64,000 nt of DNA from Tricharina praecox (lineage: Eukaryota). Below, one piece after another: positions 3,076 through 44,778 of this stretch (positions are counted from its first letter, which is position 1; every line of letters begins with the position of its first letter). The position numbers were made by a program, and so were the translations under genes. Location of the stretch: NCBI RefSeq assembly GCF_024521635.1, contig NW_026250436.1, positions 186,001-250,000 on the forward strand. The letters are read 5' to 3'. The notes beneath the pieces are model-generated. The model was not told the origin of the DNA. It saw only the letters and a program-made list of their open reading frames with translations, and ran no database searches.

Positions 3076-6000
3076 GTCCGGGACAATGCCAATATCGTAC
3101 ACGTTCATTACATGCCCGTACGAGGAATTGAGTTTTTTTTGTTATTTTTGATTGAGGTGGTGTAACTATCCCGAGTTCTCCGTTGGCAAACCCCGGGTGA
3201 ACACACGCCACCCCGGTAAATCATGTCGATCGACGGGACGACCACCAGCTTTCTCCGGTGGCGGGGATGGTATGCACGGTTAAAAAGCACATACCACCTT
3301 GCAAGGTGTGTTGGTGAGGAAAGTCGGCACCCTTTGCACCGATTGCCATAGTACAAACATTCGTCAAATCACCCGCTGTACATACAATTAATATGGCCCG
3401 TGTGCCAAGGGACAACGAACGTACCTGCATCCAGTTGATACGTCGATATCCGCCAGTTTATTGCAGAAACCAGGAAAACCCGTCGTGCATGCATCCGAGG
3501 GGCCGTTTATCCTCGGTTCGTGATGAGTCCATATCGCCGGGCCCGTGAAATTGGAAAATGGGGTTGGTGTTCTAAACGCTGGGAGGTACGGGTATGTACC
3601 ATGGTTCGATGAAACGACGAAACCGAGTTCGAAGGATGAGATCGACGGCGGGGAAAGACCGATGGGAGGTTTGCGGGGTGCCGGTCAGCTTAGGTGAGCG
3701 AGCTTGACGAGGCGAGCAATGGGTGAAAAGCACCACTGCATACCATCGTTTGGATAAACGTCAATTGCATGGGAATATCGGGCTCGCAGTTTCCGGGGCA
3801 TTGCGCCTGGCTCTCTCCGCCCCCGCCCCCGCTCGGTACGCCTTAACTAGCTGCGAATGCCAACCCCACAGCGGAGCATCCTCCACAGTTCAGTCCTTCC
3901 GCCTAAACGGTGGGCGCATGCAACTTGTGCACAAACGGGCCATCCCCACCTGTGCTGCACAGGCAACACCCCGCGGCCAATGATGATGATCCGTTCCGAC
4001 GTCTCGTGTTTCTGCTACTTCATCTCTCCCCCGCAAACGATGGACCCCTCACAGGCGCTGCATGCGTCTCCAAGAACCGGATTTCGGATTTCGCGCCGGT
4101 AAGCCTAGCTCCATATACATCAGGCAGCGGATAAAAGCCGTATCAATGATGTGAATGAACTTCCACTGCACGGCGGTATCCCGTCCACCGTCTTGGCCAT
4201 CATTACTGCCTTCTGAGGGCGATGATGAGTCGATGATGTCCTCGAAGAAGAAGAAGGCGCTGCTAAAGTCTGGTGCTTCTGGCCAGCACCGAGCGTGTGA
4301 AGCCGTAAACTAGACCAACGTCCCTTCGGCAATCGCTTCGCCCAATCTCACTCCAGCACACGACACGAGCGTCGATGAAAGCCCGGTATTCAGGCATAGG
4401 TATTCCTATTTGCGGACGTTCCGACCTACTTCGCTCAACTGCTGAAACTGTGGGGGAACTGGGTGGATTGACGACTTACCCATGCGAATCCGGGCTCGAC
4501 GATGGAAGCCGGGGGACAAGGGAGTGGTCGGTGATTGGAAGATGAACCCCGCAGGCAGACCATGCTCGTGCGTACGAGTATCAGCATGCAACGCTAGGCC
4601 CGATCTTGACGTAACGAGTGAGATGACGATTAATCTACCGGAGTTGAAATGAGGAAGGCAAGCGTGTTGATGCCGAATGAGATATCACTCTAGGATTGAA
4701 GGCTATAAAGGACTCGTAGATCCGTAGGGCTACATGGCATGAACGAATCGAATACAGCTCAAGAAGAGCTCCTCCAACTCAAGACAAGCTATTTGAGCTC
4801 TCTCTCCAGCATGTTTCCAAAGATACAGGTTTACATGTTTTCTGACGGATACAAGAAAACCAGGGAGAGGTATGTAGCCGAAAACACTGCCCAATCCGTC
4901 TCTATCGTAACCATCGACCTAAGTCTACGCGGACAACACGATGCCCGTGAACGACAGGCTGCGACTTTGTTGCCGGACACCATTGACAGCTCAGCAGCGT
5001 TATGGGAAATCGAACCCGACGGGACCTAACGCACAAATTGGCCCGGCTTCCTTTCCAGTAGATACATTGAGCACTCAATAGCCTTATGGAGTTGAATGAG
5101 AGTGCTTTGAAGGAGTAAGCAACACGGACGAAGCAGCGATACACGTACATACAAGGCCGTGGACATGAGCTGTCACTCAATCGACTGAAAGCTGCCGAAA
5201 AGATTATGCCAAAAGATGTTTCCGTCGGCCCGAGGCGGATGGGCAGGGGAAGTAAGGCACGGACTGGCCGGTACCGGGGATTTCACCTCGACTGGCCAGG
5301 GCGGGCAGGAAAAGGAGTTCGTTAGTTCGCCATAGTTTAGATAGGCTGCATGCGAAACAAAACAGGAAGGTCTCTCTCTCAGATGTTTTTCGTATAACGT
5401 TTCCTGGTGGGGAGATTATCCCTTAGTTTCCGCAACTCTGTGGCGTCAGAATGTTCATGCTCCACTGCTTATCACTGCTCTATGCACACGGATATGAACA
5501 TTTTGAGCATCGATTTACGACTCATCCACTCCACGGAAACCCACGGAGCTGGATTCGTCAGGGACAGTGCTGGATAGACACCGATTACGATGCAAGTATT
5601 TTGGATCCACCCAGACGATCTCGATAGCTTGGTATTGTGGGGCTGGACTTGCTATCTGTCCAGAGGTTTGAAAACAAGTTGAGTTGGAAAAAGCCAACAC
5701 CCCCCCCCCACCCCTAGCAGCACGAGCGATCGCTCGCCCGCCTACTTGTATCATGCACCTGTCGGTAAATATTTGGCTTGATCTACACTCGCTTTTGCTT
5801 ACCCACAAGCGTGATACAGTGCCTACATAATACCGTATAAGCCTTGGGATTTCCATGGTTACCATAAAAGTACATAAATGCACTGACAGATACTTCTCAA
5901 TTCTGTAGGGACTCGGCAGCTCTACTATATTCAGCTCAATCCGTATAGTTGCGGAGTTTCCTTTCCAGCATTTATTCTGTATCCCTACGGCACTTCCTCC

Positions 6001-41906: not shown

Positions 41907-42612
41907 CTAGTAGAAGCTGTGGTATCCGTTAGCACTTATCCCATCTCACTCGTTCGAGGAGCGCGGAGAACATACAATCCAATGATCTTTCCGGCAACGT
42001 GCTTGCGACGGGCCTCCTCGTGGTCCATGATACCCGCAGAGGTGGTCAGGACGATGTGGCCGAACTGACGCGACGGCAGGAGCTTGGCAACCCACTTCTC
42101 GAGGTCGCCGAGCTTGACGTTGTAGCGCGGGCTGATGCAGCCGGTCTTGTTGATGCGGCCGTTAAGCTGGATCACGATCTTGCCGGAGCGGTGGTCGTCG
42201 ACCTCCTCGAACTCGCCGATGTAACCTGGTATGAAGTGTCAGCGTGTGGCTCCCGGTGTCTACCAGAGCGAGGGCCCAAGAAGGTGGATGGAGACGTGTG
42301 GAAGCCAGTGCGTGTGTGGTGTTCAATGTGCCGGATACTTAAAGGACTAACGTCGTGGGATCGAAACGCTCGTCTAGTTATCAACCCGGGGCGCGCGAGC
42401 GCTGTCCGCACACACACACTGCACATCCTTCCATCCCGCATCCATCCCCTGCACCCTCGCCCCCCACAATCCATCGTACCGTGCTTCTGCATAACGTGCA
42501 AGAACTTGACGATGACCTTCGACGACGGGCGAATGAGGACCTGTCTCTTCCCGGCCTTCTCGGCGTTGTTGATGGCGTTCAAGCAATCGTTGAGGACGGA
42601 AGTCTTGACCAT
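41907..42612 (-). CDS. RPS22: 40S ribosomal protein S22 (uS8/S15a)
   Basis: [38 protein letters not shown]...ISPRYNV...[26 protein letters not shown]. Introns 42226-42479 and 41917-41975, with a probable 5'UTR intron at 42618-42774. Confidence 0.98.
42324..42391 (-). ncRNA. snR44: Intronic H/ACA snoRNA, snR44-like, predicted guide for 18S rRNA pseudouridine ~106
   Basis: Minus-strand hairpin CCGGGT / GATAACT / upper stem / TTTAA / ATCCGG / ACA+3 nt. The pocket strands complement conserved 18S UUAAA-U-C-AGUUAUC, and ACA lies 14 nt from the pocket top. Yeast snR44 is hosted in an RPS22B intron. Confidence 0.8.
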
Positions 42613-44778
42613 GTTTGCTTTGCTCCCCGGGTGGGGGTTTACGTCAGTCGAGCCATTTTGAGTGTCCGAAGCCCTTTCTTTTCTCTTGCGATCATAGTCC
42701 GGGCCATCGGACGAGATGGGAGAAAAGGTAAGGGGGATTCAAAAAGCTCGGGTTTCGAGGCGAGGCGAACTTACCGGTTGGAGGGAGAGGTGCAGGTTTG
42801 TCGACGAGGTTTGCGTGGGCGAAAGGGAGGGTTGGCGGGCGGAAGTTCGTTGTCGTTGTCGTCGGGGATCGGAGGGCGTGATCGCGCTGTGTGCACGATT
42901 GTAAAAAGTCAAGTTGCGTTGTGTGCGTCTTCCGGTTGTGTGGGACTGCGAAATCCTTGCCCTAACTAGAGTACGAGGCACGTGAGCTGCGTGCGAGCTG
43001 CATGGAAACTCACCCGGAAACGCTGCGCAGAACTCGACGCTCAAAAGCGTCAGGGGCAGGGGCTGGATATCGCTAATTACTCTAGCAGCTAACTTGGCCG
43101 TATGCGACCACGACCACAATTCTTTTCTCTCTGTCCCTCTCTCCCTCTGGAGTCTGGATATCGCTAAAGGTTAGCTACTTCTTACTAGTGGTACAGCCAG
43201 TCAAACGGATTCGAAACGACGCTTCCAGTACGGCGTGTCATGCGTCTTCGCTTGACCTCCTACTCTACATACTCTACACACCTACGTGGAGAATTCGGCG
43301 ACGTGGTTCGCATGAAGCTGCGATGCCAACTCCCGTCGAAGCCATCGTCGCCATCGTTAACAAACGGCGGCGAAGGCGAAGGCGACGGGGACAGCAAGAC
43401 AGCAAGGCGCCCAGTGCTCTTTACGACATGCTATGTATGGCATGGTATGATAGGCACCCATCCCAACTATCGTGACATGAGTGCCTACCGGTATCATATC
43501 GATACCCACCTACCATACCCTCCTACCGCATCCATCGCGACTGACCCCAATCCCATCAATCCCACCCCCCTCCTAGATATCCCCCGTCACCCCCCCCCCC
43601 CCCCCCCCCCCCCCCCGACCCCCGACCCGGTCCCCGTTGGCACCAGCAGCAACACCACCAGCACCACCAGCACCAGAACCCGCACCAGAACCACGGATCA
43701 GCACCTGTAGAGATTGGGAACGGCCATAGCGTCTGCCTTTCTACCTACTCTGGTATATCTATAAATGATGTAAATGCTACGCCGCACGCCCCCCGTCCCG
43801 CGCGCCCAGATGTCCCGGTATTCCGTCTCTGGGACTCTGGGACTCCCTCATCATGGCTTTCCAGGCTTTCCAGGCATGGCATGGGTATGACCAGTGCTCG
43901 GCCGGTCGGCGTCGCCCCCAAATTCCACAAATTCTAATACCGCGTCCGGAGATACGGTATTGGGGCGCCGATAGCCAAAGCTCGAGAGCTCGGGAGTGGG
44001 AGAGATATACATAGAGGGCGAGGGAGAGGGACTGAGGGAGAGACACAGAGACAAAGGGAGGGAGATGGAGAGGGAGAGGGAGAGAGCTCACTGGAACCAC
44101 GCACGTACCCTACACACTCTACTCCTCTACTATACTCTACTCACTTACGGTAACTACGACCATGGCCATGACCACGACCAGTTTCTCGGCTCTCTTCCAG
44201 TTCCACTACCACTCCCACTCGCACTCCCACTACATACCAGTCCCACTGCCCACTGCCCACTTCCCACTCCCAACAAGTTATGATTATGATTGGGAGGGTG
44301 AGGGGGGGGGCTGTGATATCATTCAATCATTCAAAAAGTAGTCTGTGCGTACTCTGCGGCGTGCGTGCGAGCGAGGGAGTGTGGGAGCGGGGGTTTCTCG
44401 TGGGTTTTTTGGGGTTGTTTCTTCTAGGTAGTTTTGTTTCCGTTTCCGTTTCCGTTTCTGTTGGATTGGGGCCGTTCGTTTCTTGCTGCTGCTATGATAT
44501 GTGTGTAGAGCGGTGAAGAGAGTGAGTGGCAAAGATGTAGAAAAGTCGCAGAGAATTATGCGTGCATGCATGAAGTGGATAGAGAGGTAGGCATCAGCTT
44601 ACCTTTACAAAGTAGAGTGCGGTACGTGCATTATTCGCACCCTGGACAGGCAACGCCTTGCCTTGTGCTCTCTGCTCTCTGCGCGTGCGGGCGCCAGGGA
44701 AGGAGTGAGGGAGTGTGGGAGTGGGTTGGGTTTGTTGGTGGGGTGGGGTGGGAGGGGGTGCTCGATGTTGGACACGGA

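Follow-up and report, generated by a model that had tools for sequence, protein, structure and literature searches.

Introduction

In Saccharomyces cerevisiae, the H/ACA small nucleolar RNA (snoRNA) snR44 guides pseudouridine (Psi) formation at two sites, 18S-Psi106 and 25S-Psi1056, an assignment checked in a deletion strain (PMC7641733), and orthologues are described from both Saccharomycotina and Pezizomycotina (PMC4937481). In Neurospora, Nc ACA1 is reported as a 136-nt intronic RNA, detected by northern blotting and reverse transcription, whose H hairpin targets 18S-Psi105 and whose ACA hairpin targets 26S-Psi1037 (PMC2780460). Here we examine the snR44 element carried by an intron of the ribosomal protein gene RPS22 (uS8) on the minus strand of the window, that is, the whole 64,000-nucleotide stretch of Tricharina praecox DNA that was analysed (contig NW_026250436.1, positions 186,001 to 250,000). 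The element keeps the 18S-guiding hairpin, lacks the 25S guide, and probably retains a 3' domain. Coordinates are window positions, and all features discussed lie on the minus strand.

Two other kinds of structure bear on this locus. Single-hairpin H/ACA guides occur in archaea and trypanosomatids; in yeast and vertebrates, both hairpins and both boxes are required for accumulation of H/ACA ribonucleoproteins (RNPs). Zipper stems are an established structural class in yeast introns, RPS17B being one example, and the in vivo survey of yeast intron structure that reports them excluded the eight snoRNA-host introns (Kumar et al. 2025, PMC12350175).

Compared with S. cerevisiae snR44 (RF01262; second intron of RPS22B), the window element shares the host gene, the intronic position and the hinge type, and the guide strands of the 5' hairpin in the Rfam consensus, CUGAUAACU and UUUAAGU, are as in the window; because these strands are identical, the two are expected to have the same 18S target. 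The window element differs in having no 3' hairpin guiding 25S Psi1056, in scoring 29.1 bits against the model cut-off of 33, in an upper stem of 12 nt versus 64 in the model, and in a possible terminal ACA that overlaps the branch site. Like Nc ACA1, which is listed as an snR44 homologue, it is an intronic H/ACA snoRNA of filamentous-ascomycete type with an 18S-Psi105 target; however, with its 136 nt and its 26S-Psi1037 target, Nc ACA1 as reported fits the majority of the related loci described below and not the clade of the window (PMC2780460). As in the yeast zippers, a stem of low sequence conservation links the region immediately downstream of the 5' splice site to the one preceding the branch point (PMC12350175), whereas in the window one arm of the stem is the snoRNA 3' half, or its degenerate remnant, and a guide hairpin sits at the tip. 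With archaeal and trypanosomatid guides, the window element has in common a single hairpin that carries a pocket and is followed, some 14 nt from that pocket, by a box of the ANA type. Three RNAs described from Pezizomycotina, 'intergenic structures 1, 3 and 4', likewise show one pocketed hairpin followed by an ANA-type box (PMC8216456). Unlike these single-hairpin guides, the window family is ancestrally two-hairpin, and the window RNA is known from sequence and contigs rather than from its ends.

The 18S-guiding hairpin

The window hairpin (42331..42389) is a genuine snR44 5' hairpin, orthologous to that of yeast snR44 and of Nc ACA1, with a pocket for 18S U105/106. Every motif that the initial annotation had assigned to it was found in place when the sequence was re-read: the lower stem is CCGGGT (42389-42384) with ATCCGG (42336-42331), the 5' guide is GATAACT (42382-42376, within a pairing guide strand of 42383-42376), the upper stem is GACGAGCGT (42374-42366) with ACGTTAGTC (42353-42345) and contains one G.A mismatch, the 3' guide is TTTAA (42343-42339), and ACA follows at 42329-42327. 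The host intron is a GT..AG intron of 254 nt (42226..42479), and spliced contigs from the public runs X1, X2 and X4 contain the joint 42223/42478, which skips 254 nt, with a cut that is ambiguous by 2-3 nt.

An Rfam search of the whole window at gathering thresholds gave no match. A sensitive search of the 401-nt stretch 42150-42550 identified snR44 (RF01262) with an E-value of 5.8e-4 at the sub-threshold score given above, which together with the confirmed intron bears out the earlier proposal of an snR44-type H/ACA guide in RPS22. In the resulting alignment, hairpin 1 (the 18S-guiding hairpin) and the hinge were aligned and the 3' hairpin of the model was deleted. The same search also reported KCNQ1OT1_2 at 15.2 bits against a cut-off of 80, which was discarded as a chance match.

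The pattern CCGGNNTGATAACT-N20-50-TTTAAGTNNCCGG had a single match in the window, and none of 100 shuffles contained it. It had no match in a prokaryote genome collection, and it recovered 43 metagenome loci, 41 of which are flanked by RPS22 exon motifs (42 of 44 rows when the window is counted), with L038 and L039 as the exceptions. Across the 29 unique sequences that have an intact downstream part (the window and 28 others), hairpin 1 is 98.1% paired with compensatory changes in 7 of its 13 pairs, and none of 500 shuffles reached its covariation score. Because the search pattern itself prescribed the CCGG stem and the guide strands, only the covariation in the upper stem counts as independent evidence. 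The folding energy of hairpin 1 alone is not unusual compared with shuffles (z -0.31).

In the two exceptional loci, L038 and L039, the 18S guide strands are the same but the hairpin that bears them is longer (74 nt); the hinge is AUAGAAGG, and GUUUAAUC...ACA lies downstream of it. These loci have neither flanking RPS22 exon motifs nor an Rfam snR44 match at E 0.1 or better, and they may represent an snR44 relative from another fungal group or in another host gene.

To evaluate target pairing, we used eukaryotic rDNA contigs present in bacterial assemblies, found by short-motif scans and confirmed by Rfam: L137 holds a complete small-subunit (SSU) rRNA of 1796 nt, L071 positions 1-2215 of a large-subunit (LSU) rRNA, and L073 LSU positions 1-1258. 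Altogether, six contigs filed in bacterial assemblies or metagenome-assembled genomes (L059, L062, L068, L071, L073 and L137) are fungus-like eukaryotic rDNA (SSU, 5.8S and LSU by Rfam) and represent contamination. The 18S target site in L137 is CAUUAAAUCAGUUAUCG, with U105 as the target. Hairpin 1 pairs with it as UUAAA-UC-AGUUAUCG, forming 5+8 bp around U105 with the box 14 nt away, so that the 18S pocket proposed earlier does fit real rRNA. A pocket scan gave this SSU U105 pairing (5+8 bp at 14 nt) for hairpin 1 of the window, L004, L036 and L001 alike; the scan is noisy, with chance matches of 13-14 bp for hairpin 1 too. Judging from the family and the pairing geometry, hairpin 1 would act with Cbf5, Nop10, Gar1 and Nhp2 in pseudouridylation of 18S U105/106.

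Relatives and loss of the 25S guide

Twenty-four of the 28 unique sequences compared with the window, representing 32 loci, form a majority type. All 24 show the same layout after hairpin 1, namely hinge, lower stem, UCUUACAC, upper stem, UUUAAUC, lower stem and ACA, and the corresponding snR44 is about 135-140 nt long, like the 136-nt Nc ACA1. The four majority loci tested with Rfam all scored above the cut-off of 33 (L013 51.9, L001 42.6, L009 36.7 and L032 35.9 bits), with both hairpins aligned in each, and the 3' hairpin consensus of the model contains the words UCUUACACG...CGuUUAC, as do the majority loci. The LSU target site is CUUUAAAUAUGUAAGAAG, with U1036 as the target, and in the pocket scan the majority 3' hairpin (L001 and L032) forms 5+7 bp around LSU U1036 with the box 14 nt off. 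From the layout common to all 24 sequences and the Rfam alignments of both hairpins, we infer that a two-hairpin, two-guide snR44 is the norm in these introns of the filamentous-ascomycete kind.

The window belongs to a small clade with L004/L018 and L036, which is recognised by the hinge CACAU[U/C]GAA and a divergent downstream stretch; L007, L011 and L027 form its sister group. In the window, the 25S guide is absent. After the hinge, a C-rich stretch of about 85 nt stands where relatives have the 25S-guiding hairpin, and the words CUUACA and UUUAA, which are invariant in the majority, are both missing from it. An nhmmer profile of the majority 3' hairpin found no match in the window intron, L004, L036, L007 or L011; the pattern TTACA..TTTAA..ACA had no match in the window; and the pocket scan that finds LSU U1036 for L001 and L032 did not recover it for the window, L004, L036 or L007. 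With Rfam, L036 reached 30.0 bits, and L004 and L007 gave nothing at E 0.1 or better. A profile match elsewhere in the window (4831-4847, E 1.5) was rejected because it had no hairpin or ACA context.

Judged by sequence, the 25S-guiding hairpin is thus unrecognisable in the window clade and in the L007 sister group, and the canonical 3' hairpin, the 25S U1036/1056 guide of relatives, has been lost as a guide in the window clade. The initial annotation had held that only the 18S-guiding hairpin is present. Rfam, profile and pattern searches agree with this as far as the canonical 25S-guiding hairpin is concerned; they do not make hairpin 1 the only fold, since a candidate second hairpin forms downstream, as described below.

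The intron zipper

Folding of the whole intron (minimum free energy, MFE, -107.5 kcal/mol, z -3.12) revealed that its G/GU-rich 5' part pairs with the C/CA-rich stretch after the hinge. The 5' arm of this zipper lies at 42405..42477 and pairs with 42322-42242, according to the MFE fold, duplex shuffles and the clade consensus, so that the pairing spans 42477 to 42242, starting next to the 5' splice site and reaching the branch site. The window duplex has an energy of -82.7 kcal/mol, compared with -67.9±5.0 for shuffles, none of 100 being as good.

Complementarity of this kind is spread across the family. When the duplex between the upstream and downstream parts was evaluated in 28 introns, no more than 1 of 100 shuffles equalled or surpassed it in 16 of them, with z values of -9.1 in L032, -7.2 in L014 and -6.4 in L007, and it was not significant against shuffles in 12, including L004 and L036. 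When partners were swapped as a control, the cognate pairing was better than any unrelated one in 12 of the 28 introns, a result that in the GC-rich window clade partly reflects base composition. In majority loci, the functional 3' hairpin takes part in this pairing with its loop and its 5' half, and L032 has 19 consecutive pairs between the upstream intron and the snoRNA 3' hairpin. RNAalifold analysis of six related majority introns gave the zipper as the consensus, with four helices and 29 pairs that are 93-96% paired; the consensus structure is 95.8% paired, compared with 36-45% when partners are slid, and contains 3 compensatory pairs, and one helix joins GUCG beside the 5' splice site to the branch-site UGAC. 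Because the upstream arm pairs with the snoRNA 3' hairpin, the zipper fold and the mature 3'-hairpin fold are mutually exclusive.

An upstream intron half complementary to the snoRNA 3' hairpin was seen in L001, L005, L014, L037, L029, L032, L007 and L011, and also in L012, L025, L016, L010, L019, L021 and L008; many of these lineages carry a fully canonical snR44. The near-identical metagenome contigs L004 and L018 differ by two copies of a GGATGGT repeat (intron lengths 305 and 291 nt), and the position of this difference in the G-rich zipper arm points to evolution of that part of the arm by slippage.

Before splicing, the C-rich stretch would pair with the G-rich 5' part of the intron as a long zipper that sets the 5' splice site beside the branch site and carries the 18S-guiding hairpin at its tip. 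Such a structure may influence splicing or snoRNP assembly. A limited literature search found no description of a zipper built on a snoRNA's own hairpin.

The hinge and the downstream domain

The initial annotation had read ACATTG after hairpin 1 as something other than an H box, had seen no second hairpin, and had proposed a single-hairpin RNA of ~68 nt ending there. The hinge (ACAUUGA, 42323..42329) indeed departs from the strict ANANNA consensus, reading ACAUUG and then A. However, a tally of 43 hinges gave 21 with strict ANANNA and 18, the window included, with ANANN[G/T] followed by A. Within the 29 unique sequences, the two As of ANA (A65 and A67) are invariant and the sixth position is variable, and the Rfam yeast consensus also aligns to the window hinge. 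The relaxed form also accompanies a canonical 3' hairpin in many loci, such as L032 (AGAUUG), and some such relatives score above the Rfam cut-off. Since the relaxed hinge is common in the family, two-hairpin relatives included, the main argument for a single hairpin fails. By its letters, the window hinge is an ordinary member of the family with a relaxed H box, whose ACA appears to have been taken for a terminal box.

Downstream of the hinge, a candidate degenerate 3' hairpin without a 25S pocket is predicted at 42247..42307. Its lower stem is formed by UGGCUUCC (42307-42300) and GGGAGCCA (42254-42247), with an inner stem GUCU/AGAC, and in the window it folds with an MFE of -23.5 to -23.6 kcal/mol (z -1.98 to -2.13). 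A similar fold is found in L004 and L007 and is not found in L036; in L007 it has a 12-bp basal stem leading directly into an ACA (z -2.06). Two ACA motifs follow in the window. ACA-1 (42245..42247), directly after the candidate lower stem, is shared with L004/L018, reads GTA in L036 and is absent from L007 and L011. ACA-2 (42239-42237), which with 3 further nucleotides (42234..42239) could form a 3'-terminal box, is present in five of five unique sequences from the window and sister clades and overlaps the branch-site CTGAC (42242-42238). Just before ACA-2, a short GCUG basal pairing appears in the MFE folds of the window, L004 and L007, L036 again being the exception, and the 3' strand GGAGCCAC(AC)GCUGACA is common to the window and L007 clades.

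The downstream sequence is constrained in blocks. Within the clade, hairpin 1 is 93-98% identical, a CA block (CACCACACACGCACUGG, 42305..42321) 67-82% and the 3' strand of the candidate hairpin 75-89%, compared with 20-45% for the centre of the candidate hairpin and unconstrained intron parts and 82-87% for RPS22 third codon positions. The CA block is paired with a GU block (42422-42405), appearing in the clade consensus fold as pairs 98-107 with 204-214, and the zipper could account for the blocks of 67-89% identity. RNAalifold on MAFFT alignments of all 29 sequences or of the 24 majority sequences did not predict hairpin 2, and on a sub-alignment it gave only a short version of it. That no second hairpin is evident therefore remains correct for a canonical one and is qualified by the candidate at 42307-42247, with its z of about -2. 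The ~68-nt single-hairpin RNA itself is left unsupported, in that the hinge argument fails and the downstream blocks are conserved and can fold as a hairpin followed by ACA.

Transcript data are consistent with an RNA that continues beyond the hinge. These data are assembled contigs, not raw reads, and contigs cannot reveal RNA ends. A 156-nt contig from the soil metatranscriptome X3 (depth 12.6) is identical to the window over 42233-42359 and runs unbroken across the 3' end proposed for the single-hairpin RNA. Its low end, 42233/42234, coincides with ACA-2 plus 3 nt, which, given what contigs can reveal, is a weak hint at most. The initial 29 letters of this contig repeat 42330-42358, as would be expected of a tandem copy or of a circle of 126 nt, so that 42234/42233 is joined to 42359/42358; the second of these ends lies inside the apical loop of hairpin 1. 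The repeat might stem from faulty assembly, from a relative that has a tandem duplication, or from an RNA fragment that was circularised.

We put the probability at roughly 55% that the window encodes a two-domain snR44 variant with a degenerate 3' hairpin, in which the 25S guide is lost and which ends at 42242 or 42234. On this model, the C-rich stretch of ~85 nt would still supply a guide-less 3' hairpin and a terminal ACA, for which the one overlapping the branch site is the likeliest choice, and the resulting RNA would measure about 150-160 nt, from 42391 to 42242 or 42234. How the 3' domain folds once the RNA is mature, and which ACA is used, are inferred from the predicted structures and the comparison of relatives.

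Several observations weigh against the two-domain variant. The window clade comprises only three independent sequences, and the window snR44 lies under the Rfam gathering cut-off. The candidate 3' hairpin is no better than shuffles in L004 (z -0.10) and worse than shuffles in L036 (z +1.13), where the MFE structure is a different fold and where C.A and U.U mismatches and the change of ACA-1 to GTA are uncompensated. ACA-2 is confounded with the branch-site consensus CTGACA. If GUCU/AGAC is paired, neither ACA has the canonical distance of 14-16 nt to a proper pocket, the values being ~10 nt for ACA-1 and ~18 nt for ACA-2. C as the middle hinge letter, giving ACA, is confined to the window clade (4 of 43 hinges), which fits a single hairpin. 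RNAalifold on whole introns of the window clade returned the zipper and not hairpin 2, although the upstream alignment is of low complexity there and zipper 'covariation' in this clade is accordingly weak evidence. The upstream zipper partners, namely the GU block and the stretch beside the 5' splice site, are conserved as well, and because zipper pairing largely explains the conserved blocks, downstream conservation is no proof of a mature 3' domain.

Alternative explanations

A single-hairpin H/ACA guide of ~65-70 nt, with the hinge ACA as the 3'-terminal box and the downstream stretch serving as a zipper arm that is degraded after splicing, is in our judgement rather unlikely. It would account for the confinement of the hinge ACA to this clade, every member of which has it (4/43), for its distance of 14 nt from the pocket, and for the lack of a downstream 25S guide or any other convincing pocket; hairpin 2 does no better than shuffles in L004 and L036, ACA-1 is lost in L036, and the clade consensus fold is a zipper that can by itself explain downstream conservation. 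Pezizomycotina RNAs with an H box and one guide-like hairpin, described as having no second hairpin or ACA, offer a possible precedent (PMC8216456). The hinge C, however, is one inherited change with a 1-in-4 chance, both the ancestral and the sister states are two-hairpin, and L007 combines a strong hairpin 2 and ACA-2 with an AUA hinge. The need of yeast and vertebrate H/ACA RNPs for both hairpins and boxes also speaks against a lone hairpin, as does the X3 contig, which continues past the proposed 3' end, though it may derive from pre-mRNA. A fuller version, which we regard with the same doubt, adds that what was once the 3' hairpin now serves as the 3' arm of a zipper presenting the guide hairpin at its tip.

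Retargeting of the 3' guide hairpin to a site other than 25S U1036, elsewhere in the rRNAs or in a small nuclear RNA, seems distinctly improbable. The 3' strand UGGU.GACACCGGGA is conserved at 75-89%, and with GUCU/AGAC open the candidate hairpin has an internal loop of 8+8 nt about 15 nt from ACA-1; in L007, the pocket scan paired SSU 816-840 over 14+6 bp around U831, with ACA-2 at a distance of 16 nt. Yet no convincing target common to the window, L004 and L036 was found in SSU, 5.8S or LSU 1-2215, the only shared sites being LSU 495/496 with 11-13 bp, against a background of 13-14 bp. Duplex energies of the 3' block against these rRNAs were matched by shuffles in 52 of 200 cases for the window, 171 of 200 for L004, 190 of 200 for L036 and 21 of 200 for L007. 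The strands of the internal loop can themselves pair with one another, an arrangement more suggestive of a stem than of a pocket. In the L007 match (L007:763-860), the hairpin 2 3' strand GAAUGGAGCCACGC can form 14 bp with SSU 817-830, including four G.U pairs, and the 5' strand adds 6 bp beyond a UG, 16 nt from ACA-2; the match to SSU 816-840 is not significant, being marginal by duplex shuffles (21/200).

That the window has a complete two-guide snR44 whose 25S guide has diverged beyond recognition by our searches is very improbable. In its favour, Nc ACA1 is assigned both targets (PMC2780460), and ACACGUCU, retained in the 5' half of the stretch, can be aligned with CUUACACGUCU of the majority. 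Against it, the stretch has neither of the invariant majority words CUUACA and UUUAA, the region is left unaligned by both the profile and the Rfam model, and the pocket scan recovers LSU U1036 for L001 and L032 and not for the window, L004, L036 or L007.

The host gene and its transcripts

RPS22, whose exons were read from the sequence, lies on the minus strand of the window. Its start-codon exon occupies 42480..42617, with the ATG at 42612-42610, and both flanking splice joints are confirmed. Upstream of it, an intron of 157 nt (42618-42774) lies wholly within the 5' untranslated region (UTR), the joint 42617/42775 being present in spliced contigs of X1, X2 and X3. With its 5'-UTR intron and snoRNA-bearing intron, the gene has the same layout as yeast RPS22B, in which the 5'-UTR intron is reported to mediate autoregulation by Rps22 (PMC13232506). 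A third short intron (41917-41975) lies near the 3' end of the coding sequence, with exon GGATT followed by intron GTATGT...ACAG and exon CTTCTACTAG, and loose ends of X1 and X3 contigs at 41976 run on into last-exon sequence of RPS22.

Contigs bearing the snoRNA-host intron were less abundant than the spliced ones: in X1 the intron-bearing contig (42212-42451) has a depth of 484, compared with 3776 for the spliced contig, and in X2 the corresponding values are 548 (42197-42507) and 5645. X3 contigs do not cover 42360-42477 and X4 contigs do not cover the intron, and these gaps are uninformative.

Significance

That snR44 resides in an RPS22 intron is textbook knowledge, and the hairpin itself is therefore ordinary. 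Two features set the locus apart: a small clade has lost the 25S guide, and an intron-wide zipper uses the snoRNA 3' region as an arm. The lineage has kept its 18S guide almost letter for letter and discarded its 25S guide; this loss predicts either that 25S Psi1036 is missing or that a replacement guide exists elsewhere. If the single-hairpin explanation were true after all, this would be the first such H/ACA guide RNA shown in fungi and a transition from two hairpins to one caught in the act. The window clade also constitutes a natural test of the requirement for a second hairpin in fungal H/ACA RNPs. The complementarity between the upstream intron half and the snoRNA 3' hairpin, in turn, recurs in several independent lineages, where mutually exclusive folds would couple splicing of RPS22 mRNA to assembly of an rRNA-modifying RNP.

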